Assembly: GCA_019704295.1 (NCBI GenBank)
Contig: AP024596.1
Span: 1,408,001-1,472,000 of the forward strand
Reading direction: 5' to 3'
Source of the DNA: Sulfolobales archaeon HS-7
GTDB lineage: Archaea; Thermoproteota; Thermoprotei_A; Sulfolobales; Sulfolobaceae
DNA length: 64,000 nt
This document shows, one piece after another, positions 37,642 through 58,596 of the stretch. Position 1 is the first letter of the stretch. Each line of letters opens with the position of its first letter. The notes under the pieces were generated by a model that was not told the origin of the DNA, did no database searches, and saw only the letters and a program-made list of their open reading frames with translations. Made by a program: the position numbers and the translations under genes.

Positions 37642-40409
37642 GTCTCAAAACCTGGTAGGAAGGCTACAAAACCGTTTGTCGGAAACTTCTCAGGAATGCT
37701 CTGGCTGGCTTTAAGCCGTCATAGGAAAGCTACAAACTATTCTCCTAGAAGCGAGTATTTCAAACAACTGACTAGTTTCAAGCCCTCATAGGAAAGCTAC
37801 AAACTCCTCGAGGAAATCGAAGAAAAACCAAACACATGGGGTTTCAAGCCCTCATAGGAAAGCTACAAACCATATCGTGATTTATACAAATACCTACAAG
37901 CATAGGGAGTTTCAAGCCCTCATAGGAAAGCTACAAACGATTATGAGGATATTGATTACTGCGATTTCGAGTAGTTTCAAGCCCTCTTAGGAAAGCTACA
38001 AACATGATACAAATGAGCGCTATACCTAGTATTCCGTCTTGAGTTTCAAGCCCTCATAGGAAAGCTACAAACCGCTCCCTCTTTGCCAAGCAGTTCCATA
38101 ACCCTATCTCCGTTTCAAGCCCTCATAGGAAAGCTACAAACCCAATACACATCTATCAAACCATGCAACATCGACTGGTTTCAAGCCCTCATAGGAAAGC
38201 TACAAACTCGCAAAATTATAGATTAATTGTAAATTTGTAATTTTGTTTCAAGCCCTCATAGGAAAGCTACAAACCAACCTGGTTGCTGAGATCAGGCTCG
38301 TGTACAACGGGTTTCAAGCCCTCATAGGAAAGCTACAAACGCGTCTTACCGAGATATGCGGTCGGAGCAGGGAATGGTTTCAAGCCCTCATAGGAAAGCT
38401 ACAAACCATGAGTTGGTGCGCCGGGCTCAACATATACAGCGAGTTTCAAGCCCTCATAGGAAAGCTACAAACTCGCATCTTGCACGCACTGAACAGTCAG
38501 TTCATCCTCAGTTTCAAGCCCTCACAGGAAAGCTACAAACACAGAAGAGGCAACTACTTGACCCAAAAGCGAAATAGGTTTCAAGCCCTCACAGGAAAGC
38601 TACAAACAGTGGCAAGACGTGAGGACTTTTGCGACCTAGTATCGGTTTCAAGCCCTCACAGGAAAGCTACAAACTATGAGAACATGCTGCAGGCAAAGAA
38701 AGCGGGAGAGAGTTTCAAGCCCTCATAGGAAAGCTACAAACCAATTCCGTAATTTGTATTTATGCCAGTTGGAACGGGTTTCAAGCCCTCATAGGAAAGC
38801 TACAAACAAGGTAGCCGGAAGGAAATTGGACGAAGTGGAGAGGTTTCAAGCCCTCATAGGAAAGCTACAAACGTACTCGTCTCAATGGTCTAAATATTCC
38901 AGATCAGAGTTTCAAGCCCTCATAGGAAAGCTACAAACAATATGTGTTATTAGCCCTAATACCATGGGAGACCTAGTTTCAAGCCCTCATAGGAAAGCTA
39001 CAAACCGTTAGGACCGACGCAACTTGTTCGTTCACACTAGAGGTTTCAAGCCCTCATAGGAAAGCTACAAACGCGTTACAAATTTTCCTACTAATCAAGA
39101 TGTAACTGGTTTCAAGCCCTCATAGGAAAGCTACAAACCAGGTTGGAGAAAAGGATTTTGGATGGAATTATACAGTTTCAAGCCCTCATAGGAAAGCTAC
39201 AAACGAATCCGGCGAATTTGAATCACCACGCCCCTGGCGTCAGTTTCAAGCCCTCATAGGAAAGCTACAAACTGATGAGGACATTTCAGAAGAAGTTGAC
39301 AGAATAGCCAGTTTCAAGCCCTCATAGGAAAGCTACAAACCCTCAGAGGGTTGATATAGGATGAGGATAAATTGGAGTCGTTTCAAGCCCTCATAGGAAA
39401 GCTACAAACTAATATAGCAATATATAATATACCTATATAGGAATATGTTTCAAGCCCTCGTAGGAAAGCTACAAACTTTTCGCCTTTCTCCATAAAACTA
39501 TCGATCTGTTTTAGGTTTCAAGCCCTCATAGGAAAGCTACAAACATAAGGAGGGGGTTTGAATTAGTCTCTACCAGGGATGTGTTTCAAGCCCTCATAGG
39601 AAAGCTACAAACCATTTATTCCATTTATTGCTGTCGATGATACGGCTAGTTTCAAGCCCTCATAGGAAAGCTACAAACTTAGCCGAAGCTGAACCAAATG
39701 AATTTGTGCGTATGAGTTTCAAGCCCTCATAGGAAAGCTACAAACCGAAGAGAAGGAAGAAACGCATTATTGAAAAAATTTGTTTCAAGCCCTCATAGGA
39801 AAGCTACAAACGAAAGAGTGAGGCTAGTTATGAAACGGTTATAGAGCAGGGTTTCAAGCCCTCATAGGAAAGCTACAAACGTAACAGGAAATTTTCCCGT
39901 CAATTTTACATACTATCAGTTTCAAGCCCTCATAGGAAAGCTACAAACAATTTTACATATTTACCCAAAATATTTCCGTAATTGTTTCAAGCCCTCATAG
40001 GAAAGCTACAAACATTTATAAACGAACGTAAACCGCCCATTACCGTATTGTTTCAAGCCCTCATAGGAAAGCTACAAACCAACATTAAACCGATAATATG
40101 ATGACCCGTATACGTTTCAAGCCCTCATAGGAAAGCTACAAACGTATTACACCTGCAGATCTAATTGCGTATATATCGAGTTTCAAGCCCTCATAGGAAA
40201 GCTACAAACCCGTATGCCGATTCAAATTCATACCAATATGTACACTGGTTTCAAGCCCTCATAGGAAAGCTACAAACAATGGTGTGCAACTATCGGTGAA
40301 CTATACGACCCCGAGTTTCAAGCCCTCATAGGAAAGCTACAAACGCGGACCACGATGCCTTTTACATCTACTTCTATTTGTTTCAATCCCTCATAGGAAA
40401 GCTACAAAC
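37642..40409 (-). CRISPR. CRISPR array 1: ~40 intact + 2 degenerate 30-bp repeats, ~34-39-bp spacers, transcribed on the minus strand
   Basis: Repeat gtttcaagccctcataggaaagctacaaac on +; degenerate trailer repeats at 37642 and 37708; leader on the right. Confidence 0.98.
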
Positions 40410-40614
40410 ACTCCTTCTTTTGTCCTTTCTCGTTCATAAATTTTTCGGTATCAAATTCGGCAATCTCGCTCTCCCTAGAGGTTACGTGAGGTTGCCGTCG
40501 ATAATTTACGTCTAAAAATATATGTTCTGTTATACATATTTTGGTATTACGTGGGGTTGCCGAATTCTTGTATGAAATAAAAAGTGAATATCAAAATAAA
40601 TAGAAGGATTATTT
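40410..40614 (-). promoter_or_regulatory. CRISPR leader of array 1
   Basis: AT-rich; reverse complement of 44704..44908 with ~3 mismatches; BRE/TATA-like cgaaaaatttatga ~25-30 bp from the first repeat. Confidence 0.92.
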
Positions 40615-41271
40615 ACTACTTATGGAGTTTTCTTTCCTTCACGAGAAAAACACGTAACGCTATGATCATGATATCCAGTTCCTAGAAGGATTAAGTTATG
40701 ACGAAGTTTAAGTTATTCAAGGCCAGGAACTTCAACGATCACCACGTTGATATAGGTAAGGTTCTGGACTCGGGTGTTCCCATAGCTATGTCAGAGGGGG
40801 TGTATATAGTGCCTTTGCATGAGTATTAACCTGTTTATACAAGACAAGTACTCTCACGTTACTAGGAGAGTCTGTAGGTCTTTCCCATGCACTTTGTAAT
40901 CATCGCTAAGCCCCTAAGGAACGAGTACCAGAGTACCCTTTCCTCCCAACCTGCCCCCAGTTTGGACTAATCTCCTTAATAGCTCCCCCCTCTCAATCCA
41001 TTGTTTAATAACGCCTTCAACTAAGGGGAGACGAGCTGGAAACTCCAGTATTCAGTAAAGTTTTTCGATTCAGCGGTTTCATGACATTATTCCCTGCTAG
41101 TCCCTCATTTGGTAGTCCGGTTCAGCAGTAAATCGGTTCATTATAGGATAAGATAAAGCGAACTCGTAAACCCTTGACGGTTCCACCAAAACTGCGGATA
41201 AGGTTTCCGCGTTCTCAACCAGAACAAACGCATACACGAATCTTTTTTTGCCGAAGAGTACATAGATCACA

Positions 41272-41736
41272 ATGAAGTGGAATAAGGCGGAATTTCAGGA
41301 CGGGCTCGTACTCTTCTCCTCTGATGAGATAGAGACTACTACTATAGTTATTTCAAAAAGGGGGATACACTCCATCTCATCTAAGAGGGACGTTATTCTA
41401 ATGGGATACGTTGAGTTCGGGAGGAAGGGCGAAATACGCTATTACGAGTTCGCCTTTACTCCTCCGCACGGTAAGGCAATGCTGACCAGGAGCTTCCTCG
41501 CTAAGGACCCTGAATTGAGAGAGAAGGCCTTGAGGATTGGGGACGCTCAGGAGTACCACGAGTTCATGTTGGAACTAGAGAGGGAGAGTAAGGAAAGGGA
41601 GGAGTGTTTGAGGAAGTTGAGGAGCGTGAGGGGTAACTTGGACGTAGATGAGGACTGCTTCGTAGAGAAATGCAGGAGAGTGGAACCTATCGCCGACGCA
41701 CTGAGGGAGTGTATCAAGCAAGAAGTTGAGGAATAA
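41272..41736 (+). CDS. Hypothetical protein (154 aa, Cys-containing helical C-terminus)
   Basis: Clean ORF with host-like codon usage; no recognised motif. Confidence 0.75.
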   Translation: MKWNKAEFQDGLVLFSSDEIETTTIVISKRGIHSISSKRDVILMGYVEFGRKGEIRYYEFAFTPPHGKAMLTRSFLAKDPELREKALRIGDAQEYHEFMLELERESKEREECLRKLRSVRGNLDVDEDCFVEKCRRVEPIADALRECIKQEVEE

Positions 41737-42086
41737 GGTCAACCCGGCCGTTTCAAACTCTCCTGAACTAAATTTACCCTTCCCTATTTATCTCAGCCCT
41801 TATTTCAGAATTATAACAACTTCCCTGGTTAACACTCAATTACCGCACTCCTTACCCTCTAAGGGTTGATTTATCAAAGGCGTTCCGTGATAAACCTCTC
41901 TACTTAACTTACAGTGTTACTTCAGTAAACTTAAGCTATACCACAAAACAGAGGAATTAACAGGGTGGCATTTTCTTGAAACCGCTAGGATACTTCGTTT
42001 TTCATTTACCTTGAGCCGATTCCCAGGTTTGGGTATCTAAAAGGGCACCTTAACCAGGACGTTTCACGGTAGGTCGGGACTTGCAC

Positions 42087-42415
42087 GTGAAGGCATACAA
42101 TGCGTAGTTAACATAACTAAATAAACTAAAAAGTTATAAAGCATGCCGGTTCAAAATTATGAGAAGAAATGTAATATAAAATAAGTTAATAAAAAATAAT
42201 TAATATTTTTCGTAACCTAAGGCTGAAAGAGGCTTACAACGTGAAGAGTTACGAGTTGGTAAAGGAGGCCGAACGTTTTAAGCTTATGAAATTAATCAAG
42301 TAGTTTAAATCCTCCCCCCCATTACTATAGTTGGATATACACTAAGGATCTAATTATTCCTTAGTGAAACTAAGACAATAAGGTAATAGCGTTTGTTCCA
42401 CATCATCGCGTCATT
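42087..42415 (-). mobile_element. Diverged MITE copy (IS5-like ends)
   Basis: ataactaaataaactaaaaagttataaagcatg matches the IS/MITE end; far end approximate. Confidence 0.55.
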
Positions 42416-42555
42416 CGAGGCCGGGATCGCGCCTCCCTGTAAGAGGTAATTTGAACAGGGGCTAACGTTATGAGAATTACAATTCTCAGAGCGTAACAGA
42501 TCTAAACGTAAAGTTCGTAAGATAAGTTTATATCCTAGCCCGTAATACTTCGAGT

Positions 42556-44136
42556 GTGGAAGAGACGTGCCCCCTATGTGGGAGCAGGCTCGGAGTTGCC
42601 ACCAGGAAAAGGGTACAGTGTAGGAATTGCAGATTCACTTTTAAGTTAAGGGAAATCGACCCTGAGAGGCTAAGTAGCCTCGTGAAAACAGGGAACGAAC
42701 TCTTTCACCAGGGGAGATATTATCACGCCTTCCTGACTTACCTACAGGGATTTGAGGAGTCCTGCTGGGAAATTAAGGAGGAGAATAGGAAATACTGCTT
42801 TGGCACAGCGTACAACATGGCTGTAGCTTGTTCAAGTCTGGCAAAGAAATTCATTGAGGACTCAAATCCCTCAACCAACGGTGCCGACATTTGGATTTTC
42901 AGAGGGAAGGAACTACTCAGATGGCTCAGGAGAAAAGGGGACGAGGGCGAAGATATTCCCAAATTAGAGAAGGAGTTAAAGGAACTGGAGAGCGTGGATG
43001 GTGAAAAACAGGTAGACCACGATTCCAATTCTGGGAATAGCGAGGTGAGCGAAACGTCAAGCGAATCAAAGGATGAGTCCGAGGACGCTGAATCCAATTT
43101 TCAGAGACCACAGGTAGCGAAGAGGATTACCCCTCTCATAACCTACACGAATGAAGGGGTGATCTCCGAGATATATCCCGGAAAAAGCGTAATCGACTTC
43201 TCGTCGATCGCGGGGTATTCCTCAGTAAAGGAACAGCTCTTTGAGTTCGTGGTGCTCAGGCACAGGAAACCGGAAATAATGGAGAGATATGGGTTGGATT
43301 CTGTTGCTAACGTACTGCTCTATGGTCCTCCCGGTAACGGGAAGACCCTAATGATCGAGGCACTGGCCGGGGAGATGGGAATCCCCTACCTAATTATAAC
43401 CCCCAGTACAGTGCTTAACATGTACACGGGGACTAGCGAGAGAAACCTGGCTACGATATTCAACTTCGCAAAGAGTAACTCACCTTTACTTCTGGGAATT
43501 GACGAGTTAGATGGAATAGGATATGATAGGAATCTCAGAGTCGGAGATAGCACAATAACCGTGATTTCCCAATTACTATTTGAGATAGGGGAACTCAGGA
43601 GTTCGGCGGAATCCGTCTTCGTTGTCGGGACGAGCAACTCCCCTTGGTTAATAGATCCCGCTTTGTTGAGGACGGGAAGATTCGATAAGTGGATATTCGT
43701 CCCGCATCCCTGCAAGGAGGAGAGGAAATCAATATTTGAGTACTACCTAAAGAAACATGGGAATTTCGACCTTGAGAAGTTCGCGAAGATGACGGAATGG
43801 GCATCAGCGTCCGAGATAAGATCAATAGTTACGGACGCACTTATGAAGAAGGCAAGAGACGCATACTTGTCAGGAGACTTTCCTCCACTAACTGAGGAAG
43901 ATCTTGAGCAGGCAATCAAGGTTAGGGGGAACCTGGGAGTTGTAACGAAAAGATGGTACGTTGAGGCCTATCACGCCTTGTCGTGGAATTCCCTTGGAGT
44001 GGAGGGGCCTGTCTTAGATTTCATAGCCAAAGCTGTCAAATCCATGGAGAACGATGGTGGCAATGCCTTTTTTAAAGAGGTTGCGCTTCCGGGTTCTCAT
44101 GTCTTATCTCATTCCTCAGTCCTTGGGCTACACTGA
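42556..44136 (+). CDS. Single-domain classical AAA+ ATPase (Cdc48/Vps4-like) with N-terminal Zn ribbon, TPR/MIT-like helices and acidic linker
   Basis: CPLC..CRNC; GNELFHQGRYYHA; Walker A GPPGNGKT; pore loop MYTG; Walker B IDELD; SRH NSPWLIDPALLRTGRFD. Confidence 0.9.
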   Translation: MEETCPLCGSRLGVATRKRVQCRNCRFTFKLREIDPERLSSLVKTGNELFHQGRYYHAFLTYLQGFEESCWEIKEENRKYCFGTAYNMAVACSSLAKKFIEDSNPSTNGADIWIFRGKELLRWLRRKGDEGEDIPKLEKELKELESVDGEKQVDHDSNSGNSEVSETSSESKDESEDAESNFQRPQVAKRITPLITYTNEGVISEIYPGKSVIDFSSIAGYSSVKEQLFEFVVLRHRKPEIMERYGLDSVANVLLYGPPGNGKTLMIEALAGEMGIPYLIITPSTVLNMYTGTSERNLATIFNFAKSNSPLLLGIDELDGIGYDRNLRVGDSTITVISQLLFEIGELRSSAESVFVVGTSNSPWLIDPALLRTGRFDKWIFVPHPCKEERKSIFEYYLKKHGNFDLEKFAKMTEWASASEIRSIVTDALMKKARDAYLSGDFPPLTEEDLEQAIKVRGNLGVVTKRWYVEAYHALSWNSLGVEGPVLDFIAKAVKSMENDGGNAFFKEVALPGSHVLSHSSVLGLH

Positions 44137-44142
44137 AGTCAC

Positions 44143-44657
44143 GGGAGAGCGTCTAATGTGCAATAAGTGTTATTTACTTTAAAAACTAAATTTTAATAAG
44201 TGGGAGTAACCTACTTTACACTACTCAATCAGGACGATAGGATAAGGAGAGCCAGAGTGAGTAACCCCCTTTACTAACTTACTATTATACTTTGTCAGAC
44301 CTTAAAAACCAAGCTTTTTAGTTTGTACATATAAACCTACCAAAACATAATTCCTATATTCCACATAGTAAGGCATGTTGTGCAACACCCCAAGAGAGAT
44401 TTTCCTTGACCCTAAGGGTATGACCAAGTATAAAATACCCGACAACAACCTCAGTAAACTTCGAGCTCGTCACGTTGAAAACTCAATTTTTACCTCTGTT
44501 CAATAAAGGATATATAGTCAGTTACGAGTAATTATGTTAACTAATTTTATATTATGTCTTCTCGTGTAATTAAGCGAATTTAATTTTGAAGAGGCGTGTT
44601 TCATAACTTTTTACTTTATCTAGTTATTCACATTAATTGTGCATCGAACACCGTCAC
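44143..44657 (+). mobile_element. Non-autonomous derivative (~515 bp) of the IS5-like element
   Basis: Ends gggagagcgtctaatgtgcaataa / ataactttttactttatctagttattcacattaatt...acaccgtcac. Confidence 0.7.
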
Positions 44658-44703
44658 GTGAAGTATGATTCGCGAGGGAAAATTAGAACTTCTCGATAGT
44701 GAC

Positions 44704-44908
44704 AAATAATTCTTCTATTTATTTTGATATTCACTTTTTATTTCATACAAGAATTCGGCAACCCCACGTAATACCAAAATATGTATAACAGAACATATAT
44801 TTTTAGACGTAAATTATCGACGGCAACCTCACGTAACCTCTAGGGAGAGCGAGATTGCCGAATTTGATACCGAAAAATTTATGAACGAGAAAGGACAAAA
44901 TAATGAGT
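44704..44908 (+). promoter_or_regulatory. CRISPR leader of array 2
   Basis: Inverted near-identical copy of 40410..40614; TATA-like box at ~44878; internal cggcaacc.cacgtaa repeats. Confidence 0.92.
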
Positions 44909-47900
44909 GTTTGTAGCTTTCCTATGAGGGCTTGAAACTAAGTACCGGCACCGATACTTTCACAGGATAGTATGGGTTTGTAGCTTTCCTATGAGGGCTT
45001 GAAACAGGTGTAGTGGTACTGTTGTACTCTGTGACCGTTATGTGTTTGTAGCTTTCCTATGAGGGCTTGAAACTGAAAGATGTGTGATATTGTAGAGGAG
45101 GATAGTCGGTTTGTAGCTTTCCTATGAGGGCTTGAAACATGTTCCTTGTCTAGAACGTAGTAAACTATATCGTTCGTTTGTAGCTTTCCTATGAGGGCTT
45201 GAAACCAGGAACGGGATTACTACTATTATTTTGAACAACAAGTTTGTAGCTTTCCTATGAGGGCTTGAAACTTTCAAATAGTTTCTTTATTATCTTCGGC
45301 TTATTTTCGTTTGTAGCTTTCCTATGAGGGCTTGAAACCGGTTTCAAGACATAGGATAATTATGAATATTATCGAATGTTTGTAGCTTTCCTATGAGGGC
45401 TTGAAACCCACATTACTGCTTTCTTCACTCAACTCTGCCAATAGTTTGTAGCTTTCCTATGAGGGCTTGAAACATTTTGCCCTCCCCCCTGGTACCTTCG
45501 GCAGCGTAAGTTTGTAGCTTTCCTATGAGGGCTTGAAACGGTTCATAAAGAAAAACGGAAAATTGGGGGCATTAAAGTTTGTAGCTTTCCTATGAGGGCT
45601 TGAAACTTCTATCACGATAGTCCTTATATTGTTCATCTGTAAGTTTGTAGCTTTCCTATGAGGGCTTGAAACAGTCCACAGTGTTCTTAGAAGTGCCTCT
45701 AACCCACGTTTGTAGCTTTCCTATGAGGGCTTGAAACAACTCTAAGTACTCATTCAATGGTAACTCTATTTCGGGTTTGTAGCTTTCCTATGAGGGCTTG
45801 AAACAGGTGAGAGGTACGAGTGATGTTCCGGACTGGGTCGGTTTGTAGCTTTCCTATGAGGGCTTGAAACTCACAAACCCCGCGTCCTTCCACAGATCTG
45901 CGTTCCACTGTTTGTAGCTTTCCTATGAGGGCTTGAAACGGTTAAGGGCGGTAGCCCTTATACAGCGAACGAATGGTTTGTAGCTTTCCTATGAGGGCTT
46001 GAAACTTTTTCCTAACAAGCCATGAGACCAAGTCCTCCTTGTTTGTAGCTTTCCTATGAGGGCTTGAAACAAAAAGTGAAAATTAAAATCTCTTTTATTG
46101 TGAAAAGTTTGTAGCTTTCCTATGAGGGCTTGAAACTAAATATAATGGATATCCTAAGTAGATGTTTTCATCAAGTTTGTAGCTTTCCTATGAGGGCTTG
46201 AAACCCAAAATAATACATGGGAATACTAGCATGGTGAAGGGTTTGTAGCTTTCCTATGAGGGCTTGAAACAATTTTCCAGGAGCCAGAACCAGCTCTGAA
46301 TATCTTGTTTGTAGCTTTCCTATGAGGGCTTGAAACAATTTTTCCGTAATCGTGAAGTTTTCACCCTGTACGGGGTTTGTAGCTTTCCTATGAGGGCTTG
46401 AAACCTATTTTGGGTCTCTGGGGAGGCTCTGCTGTTTCAAGGTTTGTAGCTTTCCTATGAGGGCTTGAAACTATATGAAACCAATTTCACGTTCATTTTC
46501 CTATAACCGTTTGTAGCTTTCCTATGAGGGCTTGAAACAAATTTTCTAAGTTTCACGAAACTGAGACAAATACAAAAGGTTTGTAGCTTTCCTATGAGGG
46601 CTTGAAACTAGATCTTCTTTAGTCCGTCAGCCTTACTATTTTTCGTTTGTAGCTTTCCTATGAGGGCTTGAAACTTCGCTATCGTGTGGATGTCTTTCGG
46701 CGTCGCCATGTGTTTGTAGCTTTCCTATGAGGGCTTGAAACTACCGTCCCTGTAGATACTCGTGAATGAATAGATCCAGTTTGTAGCTTTCCTATGAGGG
46801 CTTGAAACCTGGGGAGGCTGCCACACAATGAAACGTGTGAAATCGTTTGTAGCTTTCCTATGAGGGCTTGAAACCTGGGGAGGCTGCCACACAATGAAAC
46901 GTGTGAAATCGTTTGTAGCTTTCCTATGAGGGCTTGAAACTCTTCCTCCGAACTCTGAAGCGAATTGATTACTTCAGTTTGTAGCTTTCCTATGAGGGCT
47001 TGAAACTTCGCCGGGTCCCACCTCATCTTCAGCGATTTGAGGGTTTGTAGCTTTCCTATGAGGGCTTGAAACTAAAGTTACGTAAAAGCACGTAAAAGAC
47101 GTGTAACGTTTGTAGCTTTCCTATGAGGGCTTGAAACACTTTCAGAAAAGCATAAATATTTCCGATAACGTTTTGGTTTGTAGCTTTCCTATGAGGGCTT
47201 GAAACATTCGTTCAATTTCGGATACTAACTTCTCTCCTTCTGTTTGTAGCTTTCCTATGAGGGCTTGAAACGTGACATCTTTCAACCATCTGGAACGATC
47301 TCATCAGGTGGTTTGTAGCTTTCCTATGAGGGCTTGAAACTCATTTTCATCGAAAACAAAATACGCTTTCTTTTTCATTGTTTGTAGCTTTCCTATGAGG
47401 GCTTGAAACAACTAGGTGATGGAGTGAAGGAAAGGGATACGCTCTTGTTTGTAGCTTTCCTATGAGGGCTTGAAACAACGTTCAGCCTGCCACATTAGAT
47501 ATATAGCAGGAAATTGTTTGTAGCTTTCCTATGAGGGCTTGAAACCAAATCGGTGACTGATTTGGGTATATGACGCGATTCTGTTTGTAGCTTTCCTATG
47601 AGGGCTTGAAACTTACATATACCTTTCCAATGTAGTATTTTCTGTTCCAGTTTGTAGCTTTCCTATGAGGGCTTGAAACCTTTCGTTTTTCCCTAGTTGA
47701 CCGCACTCGAAATCGGTTTGTAGCTTTCCTATGAGGGCTTGAAACCATTCCGTTGTATAAGGGTCTGCCTAATCTCCTAAGAGCGTTTGTAGCTTTCCTA
47801 TGAGGGCTTGAAACCTAGAATTCTTTCCTCTATGTTGCCCCCTTCTTTTAGTTTGTAGCTTTCCTATGAGGGCTTGAAACTACATCCCGGGTAATGTGGG

Positions 47901-49547: not shown

Positions 49548-49579
49548 ATTTTATTTTCCAAAAAATAATAGGTGGGAAT

Positions 49580-49780
49580 ATGAGTAGAGAGTCTGGATGG
49601 TACGTTCGTTATTTTTTGTACGTAATTTTGCCTGGTCTATTTGTCATAGGTTTGTGGTTTTTCATTTTTGGTAATATTTTACATAATGAATCATTAGCTA
49701 ATAGTTTTCTTGTTTTTATTGTGGTCTCCTTAGTTAGTAGCACTATGTATTATTTTTATCGAAAAAGACATTTATTATAG
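49580..49780 (+). CDS. Small 2-TM membrane protein (66 aa)
   Basis: ATG at 49580 preceded by SD-like AGGTGG; two hydrophobic helices and a basic tail. Confidence 0.6.
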   Translation: MSRESGWYVRYFLYVILPGLFVIGLWFFIFGNILHNESLANSFLVFIVVSLVSSTMYYFYRKRHLL

Positions 49781-49899
49781 TTAATAGTAATGACAATGAT
49801 AAGAGTAGAGAAATTACTTTTAGACCTACAGAGAGAGCCCCCGTTAGATGAGCAAAGGGAATCTCAGGAGTCAGCTGCGAATTCAATTTATTTCCCTAA

Positions 49900-51030
49900 A
49901 AATAGATAAAAGAAATCGACTCTACATTTCGAGTAGTACTAACAGGGGACGAGGGTAAGGTAATATCATAGAAATGCTAACTGTGAACGAGGTAACCCTC
50001 CACGTCAGAATAAGGAAGTTCGTAGAGGGACAGAGCTTAACCACTACACTGGACCCTAAGATATTACTTGACGGCACGTTACTAAATAAATCGGTACAGG
50101 ACATCTAGAGGATAACTCAGGAGCAAGCCGAGAGGGTGAGTCCAAATTAAGAGGGTAAGGAAGTCAAGAGGCAGTACTACGCGAGGTACAGGTACCTCAG
50201 GGGTTCAAGATCATGATGGGAGGAAAGTAGGATTTGGAGTGGATTTTGGCGGAGTTGTACGTATTTTAAGGTGAGGAGAGGATGAGGACGTAGGTTGAGG
50301 AGACTATGGGGCAGAAGAAAGAGATTCTCGCCTTGACAGCGTCTACTCGGTGAAGGGAGGTAAGTTTAACGTCAGGCTCTGGATGCTTGAAACCTGCGTG
50401 ACTTCAAGTATGTGATAGTCGACTTGATATACGTAAAGCTTAAGGGAGTAGGTACTTAGCCTCTAACAATCTGAAGCATAACAAATACTATAGTCTCTGC
50501 CACCGTAAGAGGCCCTACATGTCTGGCCTCTAATAAAGGGTTTACAAGTTGGTATTTAGACAGCTTAAACAGTGGGTGGCTAACACATACGCCAAGGGCT
50601 GGATTTGTGTGTAGCTATCCCCAAGGGCTTTAAGCATGAGATCTCTCCAACCCAAGGCGCTACACCCTTCGCCTTAACACAGCTATGGGAACAGCGAGTT
50701 CGGAACGCTAACTATATCAACATCTCATGGATCGCTATGTTCATCCCTATACTACGTTCTCCCCCTGGAAGTACTCTTGAGGGATTACATCAGTTTATAG
50801 CACCCTTTGAGGGATTGTGACTTCACCGTTCCCTATCCTGTCTCGGCCCCGTTGGACTGTTCACGCGTTCATTCCAAACTCAGTTTAATTAGCAAAATAG
50901 AATGAATTTAACTGAATGTAATCGTATTTACAAGGGAATTCCCAGTTAACAATTTCCTTTATTTAATCTCCATTTGCCAAAACTACAATCCAAGCACAAC
51001 CTGAACTCCTACAGCGTAAATCGCCACCCA
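49900..51030. mobile_element. Degraded transposase/IS and dispersed-repeat debris
   Basis: GC-rich, stop-ridden coding-like text (YVIVD.., RLWGQ..); 50630-50700 resembles the reverse complement of 21110-21170 and 40775-40820; family not resolved. Confidence 0.45.
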
Positions 51031-51177
51031 GTCATTCATTTCAATGAATTAAACATTTATTGAATTAACTGAATCTGCAATGGGGTATGGTGCCCTATTT
51101 AGTTTTCTTGTAAATAGTGCCTACGGTGAAAATGATCAGCACTCCCTAAAAACTGCACTACCCATCAGTATCATGAC

Positions 51178-52092
51178 CTACTCGCCTTCATCAAATTGCA
51201 ATAGCGAACCCCATCCTAGCTTGCTTAGTTCCCCTAATTTCCTCTTTGCGTTAACCTTAAGAATAGCCCCAGGTAAAATCGCAGGATACATAGGTCTTCT
51301 GGCCCCGACCGACATGCTAAACCCCGTTCCTATTACCCCCAGCTTACCGCTCATCAGAATATCCTTTACTTCTACGTCGTCCACCTTAAGTTTAAGTACG
51401 TCGTCCAGTGATGTTATTCTCACGTTATCCGTTAAGGGAATAAGTGCGGGGGAAACCAGAACGGACTTACCTCCCCCCTTATTCAGGGAAAGAGATACCT
51501 CACTTACCTTTGCGACTCTTCCTTCCCCGCCTATCTCGATCACGCCGTCAAAACTAATGGGCATCTCCAGGTATATTCCCCACGTTTCCACCTCTTTGAA
51601 GTTCCTTATTACCGTAGCGTTTAGGTCCTCTAATTTCGAGCTGTAAAGCATATGTTCCTTAGAGCTTCCCCTACCCAAGTCCCTACCTATCCCTATCCTG
51701 TTGATCTCGGCAGGTTCTATTTTGATGGGGTTACCGTCCTCGTCTCTAGCCAACACTACTCTATCTTCCCTCTTTTCCAGCAACAGGAGCTTCCCCGGGA
51801 AATCGTGAACCATTATGAACTCACCCTTTTGCGTTTCCCTCTTCGCGTACACCCCCTTCACGTAGATCACAGGTCCCCACACGTCAACGAAGGTCTTCTC
51901 GAATTCTTGGATCTCGTTTTGCGGCGTCAGGGTTTTAATCCCCACGTACTTCCTGTAAATTGCGCCTAACACTGTGCTCACTAGGGGAAGAGGTTCCGAA
52001 ATCCCCTTATTCATGGGTCCGCTGAAGTTGGGAGAGTATTCCCCGTACCACCTGAAGAACACGGGTTCTATAGGCCTTATGAGCAGTCCCAT
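51178..52092 (-). CDS. cmr3: CRISPR type III-B Cas5-group subunit Cmr3
   Basis: N-terminal IRPIEPVFFR, PLxSTVLGA, IGGEGR, C-terminal LGWG; follows cas10. Confidence 0.92.
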   Translation of the reverse strand: MGLLIRPIEPVFFRWYGEYSPNFSGPMNKGISEPLPLVSTVLGAIYRKYVGIKTLTPQNEIQEFEKTFVDVWGPVIYVKGVYAKRETQKGEFIMVHDFPGKLLLLEKREDRVVLARDEDGNPIKIEPAEINRIGIGRDLGRGSSKEHMLYSSKLEDLNATVIRNFKEVETWGIYLEMPISFDGVIEIGGEGRVAKVSEVSLSLNKGGGKSVLVSPALIPLTDNVRITSLDDVLKLKVDDVEVKDILMSGKLGVIGTGFSMSVGARRPMYPAILPGAILKVNAKRKLGELSKLGWGSLLQFDEGE

Positions 52093-52095
52093 CCC

Positions 52096-54855
52096 TTACA
52101 CCTCCAATTGCTTAATGGCCTTGATGACCTCCGTTCTCTGATCCCTTTCCATTTGTCTTTTGTTTCGGTTTACGGGGTGATGATTGATGACCTCCGTTCT
52201 CTGATCCTCTTTTTTAGGGGAGGAGTTTGAAAAATCCATATCACGGCTCGCATCCTTTCTCTGATCCCATTTCTCCCCCTTCATCGTTATCGTCAGGTCC
52301 AGGGATACCAAATCCTGGTAAAGTCCCCTCAACTTAAGGTGAGGATCTCCGTTCCTTCGGAAAAGGTGAGCTATAGCGTCTTCAGGGAACTCCCTTATGA
52401 CCGTCACGTCAGTGGTTAACCAATCCTGTATAAAGCTAGACGTCAACTTCTTTTCCCTTCTCAGGGAGTCTAGGACGTCAAGGACTCTCAAGGAGAGCTT
52501 ACCGCCCTCCACCAGCGGATAGTTGTAGAGAATGGCCGCTTCCTCCCATTCAATTGCCCCCCTTCCCCTCAGCACCACAGTTACGTCCTTAGGTGAGCGA
52601 GTCTCCGAATTGATTTTGATTTCCAGGAAATCCTTTGTTTCCTCCAGGGAATGCGCAATTTCCCAAAGGTTATAGACTGCGTCCTTGTAGTGAGCTATGA
52701 GAACGCCGTAACTCCTACCGTATAAGGACAAAGCGTCCACTACCATCTCGTTAAATACGTGAAAACCTACGGGGGAACCCCAGTAGTTAGTCCTGGTTTC
52801 CTTAACTAGGTCGAGGGCTTCCTCAACGGGGGTAAGGAACATTACGTCGTCACCTCCAGCGAACACCAGAAATCCCTTTTTGCTTACTGTGGACGCGTCC
52901 TTCACCGCACTCAAGGCCAGAGCTCGAGAGATGGCTATGAGATATATTCCAGTCACCGGGATAACAGCACTCCTCTCTCCCTTGATGAAGTCGTCAGGAC
53001 CTAGGGAGAGATGTTTCATGAGGGATAACAGAGAGTTAAGCCTCCTTTCAATTTCCTCAGTAACACTCCCTCTCGTTTTCTCAATGTACACCTTTAGGGT
53101 CATTTCAATGCCTCCTCTCCAGACCTTCTTTCCTATGAAGTCCCCGTCCCCTCTCACTATAGCGTAGTATATTTTGATCTTCTTGGGTAATTCTCTCAAG
53201 AAATCATCGTCGTTTACGTTGCTGAATAACTCCTTGGCCTTTTTCGGTTCCCTGAGTATCGAGATAAAGGGCCTCTCCTCCCCAATGTAGAACAGGTAGC
53301 CCACGTCTTCGTATTCCTTAAGCGGTTTGGGAAGAGGTATCTTAACGTTGTCCTTTATTCCTACCTTACTCAAGACCTCCCTCCACAGGCTTAGGTTGGC
53401 TATATCTATCGTGGAGGGTATTACCTCAAAATCTTCCTCTACGTAGAAGCCCAATTCCTCCAATAGCTTCCTTTTATTGCTTTTCCCTAAAACCCTCTTA
53501 ATGTAGCAGTAAGCACAGAGCTCCTCCCTTTCGTCAAGGTTCTTATCCTCACCCCCATGTACGACTGAGGGTAGGATACCGCAAGACGTACACAGCGCGT
53601 ATTTTCCTCCTTCTTTAAAAAGGGCGTGCGTGTTCTTCCCAGCTTCCAACGCGTACGTTACACCGTAAAGTACTTTGACCGGGCTTTCCTTATTTACCTC
53701 TTTAATTAACCACTCCAAGAAGAGGGAATTAGATGGCTCAACTAAATCTGAACTCCCGCTCGTAAAACTCCCTACAGCCTCTCTGAAATCCTTAAACGCG
53801 TTATTCACGTCAATGACCTCAACCTTTATGGGCATTATGGGGAAATCCCTGATCCTCTCTCTAACGTCCGAATTGATGCACTTATCCACAAGAGTCTTCC
53901 AGGCGTTGCTGTAATTCTCCGTAATTTCCCTCTTAACGTCATCAGCCTTTTCGTAAACAGGAGGTAGTGCCAGCAGAATGGTTGCGGGCATTACGGGTTG
54001 GTATGGGGTGAGAATTTCGGAGGAGAAAAGGTTTCTGTACTTTTTCGCAACGTCCTTGGGAACTCCCTCCTCCATTTTCTTAATTACGGAGGAGATTAGG
54101 AACGGGTTAAGGCCTATGAAAGGCGAAATCATGATGTCAGCACCGTACTTGAAGATCAGGGGTTCAACCGTTCTGTATGCCAGGAAGGAGAGGGTCCAAC
54201 TGCCAGCCCACAGATCTGAGGCCCTTCTGGCCTTGCTTATCACCTGCTGAATGCCCGGTATGTCCACCTTAACTAGGTAGCCCTTGGGTTCATCCCCGTC
54301 AAGGAACCAATTTGAAAGAGTCGCCGTGCTGTAGAGGAGATCGAATAATGAGTAAGTGGGTGACCTTGGGTCGGCTACGGGAATTCCCTTAGGGTTATGC
54401 GAGTACCAAAGAAGTTCTAGAGACGTGTAAAGAGCGTTGTACCTGATCACGTCGTTCTCTATGCCTAGATATAGGTTTAAGGCGTCCTCGACGAAGCCAG
54501 GTACGTCCCTAGGTTCCTGTATATCGTACTTGTACAGGGGATTAAACATATTGAGTTTATACCTAGGGACTTGAACTTCCGCCTGGGGCGTCAAGAACTC
54601 ATCAGCGGACGTGGAGAATAGCCTAGCTACGTTCACTGTCCTCTCCAGTTTTGCAACGTCCGCCTTCCCTATGACCTTAGCTAGGGCGTATCCCTCAGAC
54701 TTCCCCAGCTCTCCCAAATCCTCATACGCGCTGCCAAGCCCCATCTTCGTCAAAACGTCTTTCACTATCCTCCTTTCCTCAATCCCCTTCAACCAAGGCC
54801 TCCACGGGGGTTCGTGAAGAAGCGCCAGGAACTTAACCTTTATTTCATTTACCAT
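52096..54855 (-). CDS. cmr2: Cas10/Cmr2 large subunit; GGDD intact, HD domain degenerate
   Basis: IQQVISKARRASDLWAGS Palm1 motif, CxxC..CxxC Zn site, RGDGDFIG, FAGGDDV; N-terminal LLHEPPW. Confidence 0.95.
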   Translation of the reverse strand: MVNEIKVKFLALLHEPPWRPWLKGIEERRIVKDVLTKMGLGSAYEDLGELGKSEGYALAKVIGKADVAKLERTVNVARLFSTSADEFLTPQAEVQVPRYKLNMFNPLYKYDIQEPRDVPGFVEDALNLYLGIENDVIRYNALYTSLELLWYSHNPKGIPVADPRSPTYSLFDLLYSTATLSNWFLDGDEPKGYLVKVDIPGIQQVISKARRASDLWAGSWTLSFLAYRTVEPLIFKYGADIMISPFIGLNPFLISSVIKKMEEGVPKDVAKKYRNLFSSEILTPYQPVMPATILLALPPVYEKADDVKREITENYSNAWKTLVDKCINSDVRERIRDFPIMPIKVEVIDVNNAFKDFREAVGSFTSGSSDLVEPSNSLFLEWLIKEVNKESPVKVLYGVTYALEAGKNTHALFKEGGKYALCTSCGILPSVVHGGEDKNLDEREELCAYCYIKRVLGKSNKRKLLEELGFYVEEDFEVIPSTIDIANLSLWREVLSKVGIKDNVKIPLPKPLKEYEDVGYLFYIGEERPFISILREPKKAKELFSNVNDDDFLRELPKKIKIYYAIVRGDGDFIGKKVWRGGIEMTLKVYIEKTRGSVTEEIERRLNSLLSLMKHLSLGPDDFIKGERSAVIPVTGIYLIAISRALALSAVKDASTVSKKGFLVFAGGDDVMFLTPVEEALDLVKETRTNYWGSPVGFHVFNEMVVDALSLYGRSYGVLIAHYKDAVYNLWEIAHSLEETKDFLEIKINSETRSPKDVTVVLRGRGAIEWEEAAILYNYPLVEGGKLSLRVLDVLDSLRREKKLTSSFIQDWLTTDVTVIREFPEDAIAHLFRRNGDPHLKLRGLYQDLVSLDLTITMKGEKWDQRKDASRDMDFSNSSPKKEDQRTEVINHHPVNRNKRQMERDQRTEVIKAIKQLEV

Positions 54856-55715
54856 AGTTTCACCCTGGATACCTCAATGTCCGCCCTTCCGTATCCCTTG
54901 CTTGTCCTACTGCCGATTCCCCTAGATAGGGAGTAAGTTAGCAGTAGAAAGGCCAGCTCTGCGGGTTTTTTAAGGTCGTAGTTGAAGACTGTTTTAGAAT
55001 ACCACTTTGCCTCCTCAGTAGGTTTCATCCCTATTATGAATCTAAACTTTACACCCCTCTTTACTGACAAACTGGTGATAGGATTTGGCACGACCTGCCA
55101 TTCGCTCTTCACCACTCTCCCATTACTGTAATAGTGTGGATTCACGATATCTCCCTCGAATAACTCCCCCTCACTCAACTCCACCGGATAAGCGTTTGAA
55201 ACTACGATTTCACCGACTTTACTCTGACTTTTTAGATCTTCTACTTTAAGGTACTCGAGGTCCTCCTTGTCGATAACGTCACCTGAGCCGAAGACTTTTA
55301 GTACGGATTCGACGCACCTTTTCCTCTCATTAACTTTCCTGCACAACTCTAATGCGTATGACCTCATGACTCCCTTAAGTGAGGAACCTGGTACAAAGGG
55401 CAAGTCCAGGACTGAGTCCCAGTGCATCCCGACCTCGGTGACGAGCTGAAGGAATCCCGACGCCGAACCGGTTAAAAGTCTAGATGTCAACACAGCTATT
55501 ACGTCACACCCGCTTAGCTTGAGGCCCTTAAAGGCAGTAACTACCTCGTCAAGGTAACTCCTGGCCAATTCCACGTTATTCTGGAAGTCGAAATCAAGCC
55601 CCTCATTAACTACCGTCTCCTTGATCTCTTTTCTCATGTCCTCCTTGCCAAGAGAACCCTTATACTTTTCCTTCACGGCAGATATTGAGGTAAGCATGAA
55701 GTTCCTTCCTTTCAT
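54849..55715 (-). CDS. cmr6: CRISPR type III-B RAMP Cmr6
   Basis: PFVPGSSLKG, DIVNPHY, PNPI, GIGSRTSKGYG. Confidence 0.95.
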   Translation of the reverse strand: MKGRNFMLTSISAVKEKYKGSLGKEDMRKEIKETVVNEGLDFDFQNNVELARSYLDEVVTAFKGLKLSGCDVIAVLTSRLLTGSASGFLQLVTEVGMHWDSVLDLPFVPGSSLKGVMRSYALELCRKVNERKRCVESVLKVFGSGDVIDKEDLEYLKVEDLKSQSKVGEIVVSNAYPVELSEGELFEGDIVNPHYYSNGRVVKSEWQVVPNPITSLSVKRGVKFRFIIGMKPTEEAKWYSKTVFNYDLKKPAELAFLLLTYSLSRGIGSRTSKGYGRADIEVSRVKLW

Positions 55716-57223
55716 ACTCGCCTACCCCCTCCGAAGCATTGAGTTGACTGATCCCTTTGTTCTTGTCCAGGTTTACAACACACGCCTATGTAGGCTTTGA
55801 CATACATCATGGCGTTATCCACTAATTTGCTAATACTAGTAATTTCTAAGTCGTCTCTAATCGGGATGAATATAGGCCCTCTCTTTTTATCATTTATCAG
55901 AAAGCCCTCAGATACCCCTTCCTCTTTGGGTGTCCCAGATACCTTCTCTTTGGGCACATTTGGTAGAAAAGTTAGGGCGTGAACGTTAAATCCGTTTTCG
56001 GCTTTACTCACATCTAATACAACGTAAGATTGTCTTCTCGCTATCTTCTTTTCCCCAAAGAAGATGTATCCTGTAATTTTAACATGAGGTCTTACCGCCC
56101 CCCTAGATTTATCTCCTTTCCCCAAATCAATTACATCACGCAGGCGTTCCCCTAATATCTTCTTTGCCTCTTCGATATTAGGTGTTCCTTTTCCACCCTT
56201 ACCCTCTCTGGGTAATCCTAAAACCCATGTGTCTAACTTATTACCACGCTTTTCCTGATATAATCCCTTCCACTCTGCCTTAAGGATGGCCCTTCCTATA
56301 CATTCTAAGGCATGCTCCACATTTCCTGAAACAAACCCTAATTTAACGCGACTGGTGTATACCGGAAAGGTATCTGAACGAGACAGTCTCTGGTGTAAGA
56401 GGTCCTGTGGGTCGACGCTTAACTCACTCCTGTCTAATCGCTCGAACCTCCCGAACCCTCTGTTGCCCCCCTGTCCAATTCCTAATCTAGATAATGTGAA
56501 CAGAGAGGATTTAACGAATTCCTCACCCAAGGTCTTTTCTTCCCTTTCCGCCATCACCTCCACTGTGATGGACACAGTACCTGGTCTCACAGGTAAAGCC
56601 TTTATAACATTCAACAAAGCGCTCTCTTGGGAACCCTGACGATACCAAATCCTAAGCAATTTTTCCACCTTGAGAAAAACTCTTGGAATACAGAATATTG
56701 ACAGGAAATCAAATCCTTGCTTTTCATCACAGAGACCTCTGAGGCTTCCCTCAACCTCCTTCATTTTCCTCTTTAGTTCATTCTCCTCATTCAGAGCGAG
56801 GTAAGTTACCTTTTTTCTCCCCCCGTGGCCTGTACTCGACTCCTTCTTTGCAGTTTCAGGCACGACGTCGTTCACGACCTCACCTGTCTTTAAGTCCACC
56901 TTTATAGGGCTACCAGTAATGCTAACGGTAACAGCTGACTTTCTCCTCTTCTTTGAGTCCCCCGTTATGCCTAATTTCTCTAGGAAATCGTCTCCCCTAA
57001 TAGTCCTCATGAACCAAACGGTCTTACCCATCAGGGATTTCGCATCAGGTAAATTGACGTATCCGTAATTCCCCTTTACTCTGATGACGTTACCGGAGAA
57101 ATCTCCTCCCCACCAGGGAGTGTAGTTGACGAAATTCCCCCTGAAGATTACTTCTTGTTTCGCGACTCCCTTTACCTTGTTTATCATGTTCCCTATGTCT
57201 GGATTATCACTCATTAGTGTCAC
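55712..57223 (-). CDS. cmr1: CRISPR type III-B RAMP Cmr1
   Basis: TPWWGG, GIGQGGNRGFG, LGLPR, RRQS motifs. Confidence 0.9.
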   Translation of the reverse strand: MTLMSDNPDIGNMINKVKGVAKQEVIFRGNFVNYTPWWGGDFSGNVIRVKGNYGYVNLPDAKSLMGKTVWFMRTIRGDDFLEKLGITGDSKKRRKSAVTVSITGSPIKVDLKTGEVVNDVVPETAKKESSTGHGGRKKVTYLALNEENELKRKMKEVEGSLRGLCDEKQGFDFLSIFCIPRVFLKVEKLLRIWYRQGSQESALLNVIKALPVRPGTVSITVEVMAEREEKTLGEEFVKSSLFTLSRLGIGQGGNRGFGRFERLDRSELSVDPQDLLHQRLSRSDTFPVYTSRVKLGFVSGNVEHALECIGRAILKAEWKGLYQEKRGNKLDTWVLGLPREGKGGKGTPNIEEAKKILGERLRDVIDLGKGDKSRGAVRPHVKITGYIFFGEKKIARRQSYVVLDVSKAENGFNVHALTFLPNVPKEKVSGTPKEEGVSEGFLINDKKRGPIFIPIRDDLEITSISKLVDNAMMYVKAYIGVCCKPGQEQRDQSTQCFGGGRRV

Positions 57224-57683
57224 CCTGCGGCGTGAGCATTTCGCTAAGTTCCTTGACTCTTATGATCGGCGTGAGTATCTTCTTCTCTATTTTCACTTCC
57301 CGCTCCTCAATGCTCCTTATGCACTCTAAGATCAAATCCTCCCTGATTTCGTCACCACCACAACTTTCCACCTCCATACTGTTCAAGATGTAGAAAAGGG
57401 AACCGATAAACGCCGAATAGCCCTTATTGCTCTCCCCTTCCATGTCACTACATATCTTTTTGTCTTCAACCCTCGGAGATTCCGCTCTCCAATAATCGTA
57501 ATAGTACCCGATATCGGAGATCTTCCCCTTTGATAAGTAGAAAATCATGGCACCTACAAGACCTCCCTGCAGCATCAATGATGGGAAGTCCCTTGCTCTT
57601 CTCGTAAATCCTTTAATTCCCTCATCCCCGCACTTCCTCTTGACTTGGTATAACTTCTTAGCAATGTCTATAGCCAAATCCAA
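57207..57683 (-). CDS. cmr5: CRISPR type III-B small subunit Cmr5
   Basis: RARDFPSLMLQGGLVGAMIFYLSK motif; position after cmr4. Confidence 0.92.
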   Translation of the reverse strand: MDLAIDIAKKLYQVKRKCGDEGIKGFTRRARDFPSLMLQGGLVGAMIFYLSKGKISDIGYYYDYWRAESPRVEDKKICSDMEGESNKGYSAFIGSLFYILNSMEVESCGGDEIREDLILECIRSIEEREVKIEKKILTPIIRVKELSEMLTPQGDTNE

Positions 57684-57687
57684 GTTC

Positions 57688-58596
57688 TCACTCTCTAAGC
57701 AAGGAGACCTTAATAACGCCCCTTCCGATTGTCTCCTTACCGCCCAAGTTCATGTAAAATGAGTTGCCCGACTCACTTCCCGTCGCCATCTTAAGGAACT
57801 CCTTATATTGGTTGGCGAAACAGTTATCACTGCAGATCTCCTCATGGTTCCTACAGTACTTATTGACCTTAGGAAGGGAAGGCACGAGTAGTCCGAACAT
57901 TATCGTTCCTTGCGGTAAGTACTCCTCCGTCCACAATCCTCCCTCATTCGTGGTCTTCGTACTCAGGTTTATTTTATTCCTGGTCATCCTGATGTAAGCC
58001 CTCTCCAAGATCTCCGAACCCTCGTCGTCCTCTAAGACGGTAATACCGTCATTGATCTTCTCACTAAGCTTGCCCAGTCCCGTAAACATAGTCGGATTTT
58101 CGATCTTTATTAGCGGTTTCTTCAATCCCGCCACGTCGACTTCTCCGCTGGAATTTCCGTAGAACTTTTTGATTGCGGAACGTAAGCTCTCGTTGCTTGT
58201 GAGTTCCAACAGGTCCGTAACCCTGCTGATTAGGTACCGCGACGTTCCGTAAATGTACCCGTGAGTGTTACTCGGAATGGGAACTAGTAAGGGTATCAAA
58301 TCGGTCACGCTTATTACCCCACTACCCGTCTCGTCTCCCTTCTCAGGTCCGAAAAGACAACAGCATATTCCAGCCTTCTCGCAATTGATCCTTCCATCTT
58401 CGAGTGGAGAGTTGTAAAGAGTAGCACAGAACGATTTCAACGCTCCCTTAAAGGATGAGGCGTAAACTACAGGGTAGTTAAACGGATCCCTTTGCACAGG
58501 AAGATCCACAGCTCCCCCGCTCCTCCCAGCTCCTACGTGAAGTGGAGTTATTGCGTAAATAAGTATTACGTCAACCTTCTCCTTAGGGACAGACAT
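57688..58596 (-). CDS. cmr4: CRISPR type III-B RAMP Cmr4 (catalytic Asp present)
   Basis: TPLHVGAG..VDLPVQRD, SSFKGAL, LWTEEYLP, LGGKETIGRG. Confidence 0.96.
   Translation of the reverse strand: MSVPKEKVDVILIYAITPLHVGAGRSGGAVDLPVQRDPFNYPVVYASSFKGALKSFCATLYNSPLEDGRINCEKAGICCCLFGPEKGDETGSGVISVTDLIPLLVPIPSNTHGYIYGTSRYLISRVTDLLELTSNESLRSAIKKFYGNSSGEVDVAGLKKPLIKIENPTMFTGLGKLSEKINDGITVLEDDEGSEILERAYIRMTRNKINLSTKTTNEGGLWTEEYLPQGTIMFGLLVPSLPKVNKYCRNHEEICSDNCFANQYKEFLKMATGSESGNSFYMNLGGKETIGRGVIKVSLLRE

Follow-up and report, generated by a model that had tools for sequence, protein, structure and literature searches.

The locus described here raises a simple question: how might a type III CRISPR complex operate if its Cas10 subunit has lost the DNase site and no effector gene is found nearby? 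The locus belongs to Sulfolobales archaeon HS-7, whose genome was analyzed as a single contig of 2,151,177 bp (39.6% GC). It lies in a stretch of 64 kb, contig positions 1408001-1472000, hereafter called the window. It comprises a type III-B Cmr cassette and two divergent CRISPR arrays that enclose the gene of an AAA+ ATPase. A preliminary description of the window had proposed that the enclosed genes, and perhaps a neighboring helicase or membrane protein, might be undescribed ancillaries of the Cmr complex. The explanation that we consider probable is that HS-7 has a class 1 CRISPR system that is complete, though dispersed, in which an HD-dead, cyclase-only Cmr complex signals in trans, most likely to standard effectors with genes 35-45 kb distant, accompanied by passenger genes. 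The core finding is an ordinary one, as HD-dead cyclase-only Cmr complexes are of an already known kind.

The cassette runs in the order cmr4-5-1-6-2-3 across 58596-51178 (window coordinates are used unless contig positions are indicated):

51178-52092, minus strand: cmr3; TIGR01888 below cut-off, 46% to Stygiolobus caldivivus Cmr3, syntenic
52096-54855, minus strand: cmr2/cas10; HD site degenerate, Palm motifs intact
54849-55715, minus strand: cmr6; TIGR01898 above cut-off
55712-57223, minus strand: cmr1, assigned by position and homology; 34% to its syntenic counterpart of the closest cassette, no profile match
57207-57683, minus strand: cmr5; TIGR01881 above cut-off
57688-58596, minus strand: cmr4; catalytic Asp motif VDLP present, TIGR02580 above cut-off

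The type III-B gene set is thus complete: Cmr2, Cmr4, Cmr5 and Cmr6 score over the NCBIfam cut-offs, and Cmr3 and Cmr1 are recognized by synteny or homology. None of the six genes is interrupted or truncated. When the window Cas10 was aligned with 15 other Cmr2 proteins, seven near-invariant residues of the HD site were found to be altered (D15E, H51G, D78R, R86E, T163P, H168Y and H173L), and the window Cas10 was the only one of the 16 to have lost them. The Palm motifs GDGD (residues 569-572) and GGDD (667-670) are kept, and the zinc-finger motif is intact. The loss is specific to the HD region, where 9 of 29 near-invariant columns are changed versus 4 of 52 elsewhere (p = 0.01). The earlier view of an HD-dead, cyclase-intact complex holds as far as sequence can tell, and the HD DNase site is most likely dead. 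The loss appears to be specific to this lineage, as every HD residue is kept in the closest cassette (Stygiolobus caldivivus, 53% identity), which shares the gene order and also adjoins an array. No CARF gene neighbors the latter cassette, and its csx1 gene lies around 120 kb off. Near the 3' end of the HS-7 cas10 gene (52121-52207), a 24-bp direct repeat around 39 bp makes a 63-bp in-frame duplication.

As initially reported, the 64-kb window holds no cas1, cas2, cas4, cas6 or CARF gene. The accompanying statement that there is no recognizable effector fails beyond the window, as the genome carries four CARF genes. The whole-genome search that the preliminary description had suggested found cas1, cas6 and CARF genes, all of them outside the window:

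72530: cas3 (type I-B cluster)
75615: cas2 (type I-B cluster)
79766-81387: array 3 (type I-B cluster)
81897: cas4 (type I-B cluster)
82447: cas1 (type I-B cluster)
to 88376: cas8b, cas7, cas5 and cas6 (type I-B cluster)
93648: Csx1, 35 kb from cmr4; TIGR01897 170.8 bits versus a cut-off of 110, RxxxxH HEPN motif
103327: CARF-PIN (E = 3e-132)
elsewhere in the genome: second CARF-HEPN (E = 2e-79)
elsewhere in the genome: Crn1-like stand-alone CARF, a ring nuclease (E = 2e-65)

The type I-B cluster, with its adaptation genes and cas6, is located 9-24 kb past the window end (18 kb in the case of cas1). Its cas1, cas2, cas4 and cas6 genes adjoin array 3, whose repeat and leader are the same as in the twin arrays. 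Some 33-45 kb to the left of the window lies a second Cmr cassette, which includes cmr7 and an HD-intact Cas10 and is accompanied by a fourth array. Hence, the impression of missing genes and of an effector gap arises because the window edge falls short of them. A search with PF09651 gave no match anywhere, controls included, and is uninformative.

The arrays inside the window, and their leaders, are as follows:

37642-40409, minus strand: CRISPR array 1; 42 copies of the 30-nt repeat, trailer (left end) degenerate
40410-40614, minus strand: leader of array 1, 205 bp
44704-44908, plus strand: leader of array 2, 205 bp
44909-49547, plus strand: CRISPR array 2; 69 repeats and a further, disrupted unit, with spacers duplicated inside the array

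Both arrays use one common 30-nt repeat and are oriented outward, and their leaders form an inverted repeat with 98.5% identity across 205 bp, in agreement with the initial observation. The repeat is the same in all four arrays of the genome, and the leaders differ at 2-10 of their last 196 columns (8-10 differences when those of arrays 1 and 2 are compared with the other two). Because the four leaders are near-identical, the inverted pair can be viewed as two orientations of the only leader type that the genome has. Arrays 1 and 2 have no spacers in common and have therefore grown independently. Spacers of array 1 show weak matches to the rod-shaped viruses SBRV1 and SIRV2 (E = 0.2), and two spacers of array 2 match the turreted icosahedral viruses STIV1/STIV2 (89-94% over 33-36 nt, E = 0.03 and 0.003). 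No convincing self-targeting spacer was found.

Several irregularities were detected in the arrays and around them. Array 2 contains, at 48405-48517, a 30-bp duplication (the last 8 nt of the repeat plus the first 22 nt of the spacer) flanking a 39-bp insert, an arrangement that resembles off-register Cas1-Cas2 integration. The interval from array 2 to cmr3 has two degenerate repeat-like motifs (50605-50830), which could be relics or a regulatory mini-array. In addition, recombination between the leaders could invert the 4.1-kb segment that they enclose (40410-44908 with the leaders included).

According to the explanation that we favor, one adaptation module (cas1, cas2 and cas4) and one Cas6 would serve the four arrays, as suggested by their common repeat and leader. 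The resulting CRISPR RNAs would be loaded into the I-B Cascade, the HD-intact Cmr complex with Cmr7 (encoded around 36-45 kb left of the window), and the HD-dead Cmr complex. Upon binding of target RNA by the latter, Cmr4 would cut the RNA and the Palm domains of Cas10 would make cyclic oligoadenylate (cOA). The product would most likely be cyclic tetra-adenylate (cA4), because Csx1 and Crn1-like genes are present in the genome and 84% of known effectors are activated by cA4 (PMC11229360). The signal might then diffuse to Csx1, encoded 35 kb off, and possibly to other CARF proteins, and the Crn1-like ring nuclease would remove it, if the gene inventory is a faithful guide to their coupling. 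As for the origin of the locus, the presence of a second, HD-intact Cas10 may have relaxed selection on the HD site of the window Cas10, with loss of its metal ligands. The twin arrays may derive from an inverted leader duplication in a region rich in miniature inverted-repeat transposable elements (MITEs), followed by their independent growth.

Known systems offer close parallels. The HS-7 cassette resembles the type III-B Cmr systems of Sulfolobales (Cmr-beta of S. islandicus, 6S6B; Cmr-alpha with Csx1) in its Cmr1-6 set, Cas10 architecture and Palm motifs, and 6S6B is the best PDB match of the HS-7 Cas10 (E = 1e-41). Another likeness is that arrays and Cas6 are common with a type I system; type III modules that rely on type I systems for arrays, Cas6 and adaptation genes are frequent among archaea (PMC3973734). 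The HS-7 cassette differs, however, in that the HD metal ligands are replaced, cmr7 and csx1 are lacking, and the 30-nt repeat is common to the type I-B module. The HD-less III-B system of Thermus thermophilus provides a second comparison, as it performs cOA signaling without Cas10 DNase and has CARF nucleases in the genome (10.1101/2023.09.03.556089); HS-7, which has CARF genes too, would signal likewise. The HD domain is absent in T. thermophilus, while HS-7 keeps the domain with a mutated site. Lastly, Hoikkala et al. 2024 (PMC11229360) described 133 cyclase-only Cas10 loci without local effector, enriched in genomes with several type III loci, and proposed inter-locus signaling. With a Cas10 that is predicted to be nuclease-deficient and retains the cyclase motifs, no local effector, and a second type III locus and effectors elsewhere, HS-7 is a further case that shows no substantive difference.

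The favored explanation also holds that the genes between the leaders are passengers. The contents of this region can be listed as follows:

40640-41016, no strand: insertion sequence/MITE relics, genome-wide repeat fragments (16 copies or fewer in the genome)
41272-41736, plus strand: 154-aa orphan, probable passenger; beta-meander plus helices
42081-42159, no strand: MITE-like fragment in opposite orientation to its downstream copy (44535-44664), which it matches at 75% over 85 bp; around 30 copies genome-wide
42556-44136, plus strand: 526-aa protein with zinc ribbon, TPR, acidic linker and classic AAA+ ATPase; catalytic motifs intact
44138-44664, no strand: MITE-like repeats between the ATPase gene and leader 2 (27-64 copies genome-wide)

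The orphan and the ATPase are encoded by the only credible genes between the leaders, as had been noted. Much of the remaining DNA is made of fragments of genome-wide repeats, and the inverted MITE-like pair (42081-42159 and 44535-44664) brackets the ATPase gene.

The predicted structure of the orphan is confident (predicted local distance difference test score of 90). Fold searches gave a best Z of 8.1 to generic beta-sheets, no Foldseek match with E < 0.001 and no CARF/SAVED-like match, a blank that does not show a new fold. When homologues were surveyed in 46 genomes of the family Sulfolobaceae, a single one was found, in Metallosphaera yellowstonensis, 68 kb from an array and around 94 kb from a Cas10 gene; Cmr2 was not found in that genome. 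Linkage of the orphan to type III cassettes is therefore not conserved in the one homologue available, and a word-indexed protein search returned the query alone. The orphan is probably a passenger in a MITE-rich variable region.

The N-terminus of the ATPase carries a CxxC..CxxC pattern and a TPR bundle (residues 33-150; VIA Z of 12-15.5 to TPR proteins). The fold search for a nucleotide-sensing pocket that had been suggested for it found TPR folds and no nucleotide-sensor fold, and a CARF profile scan gave no match. One intact classic AAA module follows (PF00004, E = 1e-31), in which all the marks of classic-clade AAA+ unfoldases were found: Walker A (GPPGNGKT), the Walker B Glu (IDELD), the sensor 1 Asn (N361), the Arg finger (R372/R375) and an aromatic pore loop, whose Tyr is replaced by Phe in one orthologue. 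These catalytic and pore motifs are those of Cdc48/VAT, Vps4/CdvC, PAN, IetA and TRIP13, and sub-cut-off matches were obtained to all these models. Similarity to TPR-AAA fusions was also detected (TM-scores of 0.59-0.62 to TPR-AAA clusters). However, the combination of a single AAA ring with a zinc ribbon and a TPR N-terminus was found in only three Sulfolobaceae genomes. The full-length predicted model is poor outside the N-terminal and lid domains, with the linker and the AAA part poorly modeled. Identification as the ATPase of Ietas (IetA-IetS) or of a TRIP13-HORMA pair of the CBASS type was considered and rejected: the IteA score was 85 bits versus a cut-off of 510, and there is no adjacent S8 protease or HORMA gene. 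In the light of what is known of the family, the protein is most likely a TPR-targeted unfoldase or disassembly ATPase, working as a hexamer with the TPR choosing the substrate.

Two of the 46 family genomes harbor an orthologue of the ATPase, and Cmr2 was found in neither. For the copy of Sulfodiicoccus acidiphilus, the closest CARF gene is 40 kb away and an array 62 kb away. That of Sulfuracidifex tepidarius lies in a stretch (599-619 kb) with decayed type I-D genes and plasmid-like small open reading frames (ORFs; DUF5658). Neither orthologue adjoins a type III cassette, and neither the ATPase nor the orphan is found near seven related Cmr cassettes, although the sample is small. A word-indexed protein search with the ATPase N-terminus returned the query alone, and the full-length profile matched Cdc48 proteins only; an exhaustive profile search added one orthologue and, beyond it, generic TPR proteins. 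On plasmids, no full-length ATPase was encountered. Scans of viral and metagenome contigs yielded no relatives, but these are weak blanks, as a genome-contig scan with the ATPase C-terminus missed known orthologues. Like the orphan, the ATPase looks like a passenger of the MITE-rich region. The preliminary description had conceded that the enclosed genes would be passengers if their homologues occurred mostly away from CRISPR loci and canonical effectors existed elsewhere in the genome. Csx1/CARF genes and a ring nuclease do exist elsewhere, and for two of the three homologues the nearest CRISPR gene or array is 40-68 kb away, the S. tepidarius ATPase between arrays being the departure from this pattern.

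Certain observations weigh against the explanation that we favor. On the signaling side, both the synthesis of cOA and its species are deduced from genes, and CARF proteins may differ in the cOA species they need (PMC6546367). On the passenger side, the S. tepidarius orthologue is flanked by two small arrays that face outward at distances of 1.8 and 5.3 kb, so that two of the three members of the ATPase family (HS-7 and S. tepidarius) are array-proximal. Homologue counts are also tiny, with two orthologues for the ATPase and one for the orphan. The two mini-arrays of S. tepidarius carry different repeats. The parallel deserves notice, but array proximity is easily reached by chance in that region: with seven arrays packed in 135 kb, an array is no more than 2 kb away at 20% of positions and no more than 6 kb away at 54%.

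The alternative that survives best concerns genes on the left of array 1 and is compatible with the favored explanation:

31680-34610, minus strand: 976-aa YprA/MrfA-like superfamily 2 helicase, candidate CRISPR-linked accessory
35153-36271, plus strand: 372-aa multi-pass membrane protein, candidate CRISPR-linked accessory
37132-37551, minus strand: AbrB/MazE-type antitoxin gene; PF04014 above cut-off

It is possible, if on balance doubtful, that the helicase, the membrane protein or both are true, undescribed accessories of Sulfolobaceae type III systems. The task of the helicase, a repair enzyme enlisted for defense, would be to open up or reshape nucleic acid during interference or adaptation; the membrane protein would provide a membrane arm of the response. 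The helicase core resembles YprA most, the best PDB match of the family profile being B. subtilis YprA (6znp, E = 2e-42; next match, 2e-24). YprA/MrfA proteins act in repair and in the DISARM, Dpd, Druantia and ARMADA systems, and the family has been repeatedly recruited into defense systems (PMC12458937); the main text of that study mentions neither Sulfolobales nor a CRISPR link. The Sulfolobaceae clade differs in that it adjoins type III/CARF genes. Pfam matched no C-terminal DUF1998 zinc domain in the 14 family members scanned.

The helicase is found almost throughout several other families of the class and is patchy in Sulfolobaceae (10 of the 46 other genomes, with an apparent orthologue in Sulfurisphaera tokodaii). 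A strongly supported branch sets the Sulfolobaceae helicases apart from the others. In 8 of 11 Sulfolobaceae genomes, HS-7 included, the helicase is located within 10 kb of a cas gene, a CARF gene or an array, a count that includes related genomes and hence non-independent kin, as do those given below for the membrane protein. Its direct neighbors are csx1, CARF-PIN (twice), a Cas10, a III-D small subunit or cas6. In contrast, none of 20 loci outside Sulfolobaceae has a cas gene or a true array within about 8 kb, although the Cas library used is Sulfolobaceae-derived and has lower sensitivity in other families. The three helicase genomes without CRISPR linkage belong to one genus, and one of these copies is on a 5.5-kb contig.

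The membrane protein is present in 13 of the 46 family genomes, with an apparent orthologue in Sulfolobus acidocaldarius, and in none of the 257 other genomes of the class searched. Six of the 13 orthologues and the HS-7 copy lie within 10 kb of CRISPR genes or arrays, that is, 7 of 14 genomes, versus a 10-kb background of 7.4% in the HS-7 genome, which serves for the helicase counts too. This background covers the whole genome, however, and the proper comparison would be the variable region. Of the seven unlinked copies, one is on a 5-kb contig. The gene is directly beside a CARF effector gene in three genomes and beside cas6 in one; in S. caldivivus it is sandwiched between csx1 and a III-D cassette. 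The protein has no Pfam, PADLOC or PDB match; a conserved Asp and a GVG(L/M)ADG motif were observed. A DUF1614 or presenilin-like identity, suggested by this Asp and motif, found no Pfam or PDB support.

In favor of an undescribed accessory role, no specific Cas-accessory profile of PADLOC matches the orthologues of the membrane protein or the window helicase. A non-exhaustive literature check found no description of a CRISPR link for either family. However, their neighbors, mostly type III-D or CARF loci, are mixed overall (III-D, variant type III, III-B and I-B), a pattern that fits co-residence in defense islands equally well. Both genes are missing from most type III-bearing genomes, and no sensor domain was found in either protein. 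In HS-7 they lie 15-17 kb from cmr3, and the window helicase forms a long branch. The idea of ancillaries thus gains support from gene neighborhoods, though not as III-B-specific factors. The fuller proposal that Sulfolobaceae recruited a YprA-like helicase and a membrane protein for type III loci, which in HS-7, where both flank the twin arrays, would support the HD-dead Cmr complex through helicase remodeling of nucleic acid and a membrane-level response in parallel with CARF effectors, is advanced only tentatively.

Another possibility, which we find unlikely, is that the TPR-AAA+ ATPase is a subtype-independent factor associated with arrays, for instance by ATP-driven stripping of Cas1-Cas2 or chromatin from leader-repeat junctions. 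Such a role would account for its position between leaders. In HS-7 as in S. tepidarius the gene is enclosed by arrays that face outward; this location, the intact catalytic motifs and the TPR substrate-binding module are consistent with this possibility, and leader-specific integration in S. solfataricus requires an ATP-dependent host factor, as yet unidentified (PMC5815122). However, the ATPase was not found in 44 of the 46 family genomes, including all 8 of the presumed Saccharolobus genus, in which the host factor was observed. The Sulfodiicoccus copy is far from CARF gene and array alike, the S. tepidarius stretch is dense in arrays, and MITE fragments flank the HS-7 gene. Moreover, the architecture is a generic one, with TPR-AAA proteins of around 500 aa found in archaea and bacteria.

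It also seems improbable that the cassette is decaying, with HD loss as the first pseudogenization step of a redundant Cmr module that has little or no immune role. The existence of a second full Cmr module, the seven HD-site changes and the 63-bp duplication in cas10 would fit such a scenario. Nevertheless, the six genes remain open and full length, and the Palm, zinc-finger and Cmr4 catalytic motifs are intact, with 4 of 52 near-invariant non-HD positions changed.

Last, the proposal that the enclosed ATPase and orphan are dedicated type III-B ancillaries, either a remodeler or a second-messenger effector replacing a missing CARF protein, is very improbable: the genes lie inside the arrays and 7 kb from cmr3, and have a high GC content at third codon positions (GC3) similar to that of the cmr genes, and effector-less HD-dead, cyclase-intact loci have yielded new effectors in other cases (PMC11229360), yet four CARF genes are present in the genome, no homologue co-occurs with Cmr2, related cassettes lack both genes, and neither the orphan nor the ATPase N-terminus matches a nucleotide-sensor fold. 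The enclosed genes do not behave as type III-B ancillaries, and this part of the initial proposal finds no support. High GC3 as a sign of their co-transfer with cmr was rejected, as the feature is regional and extends to transporter and carotenoid genes over around 200 kb.

The raised GC3 just mentioned (0.5-0.6 versus a genome mean of 0.40) spans CRISPR, carotenoid and transporter genes at contig positions 1300000-1530000; the second Cmr cassette has a low value, around 0.3. One further ORF of the window is listed here:

49541-49780, plus strand: small two-transmembrane ORF (79 aa), low GC3; no credible orthologue, borderline matches to longer membrane proteins only

Outside the window, a lone near-perfect repeat is found just upstream of cas2, between cas2 and array 3 (contig 1484008-1484037, window +76008). 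The trailer end of array 3 (contig 1487766 region) abuts a tRNA-like sequence, and cas2/cas3 are split from cas4/cas1 by array 3 and three low-GC genes, which suggests integration or rearrangement. A 1439-aa protein with SIR2, NTPase and repeat regions is encoded between the Cmr and I-B clusters (contig 1473673-1477992, window +65673; ThsA/SIR2 profiles, E = 9e-18) and is probably a stand-alone defense gene. In S. caldivivus, large unannotated genes and three tandem paralogous genes of 910-920 aa, just upstream of the Cmr cassette, are possibly a restriction-modification-like defense island.

The lasting value of this analysis is the neighborhood signal of the helicase and the membrane protein: if the two proteins prove to be accessories, the toolkit of archaeal type III systems would gain two families. 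As for the Cmr complex, HS-7 offers a clean natural case of a Cas10 that would lack the DNase site only, in a genome that retains an HD-intact paralogue and several CARF effectors. Such a setting makes inter-locus signaling testable in a cultured archaeon.

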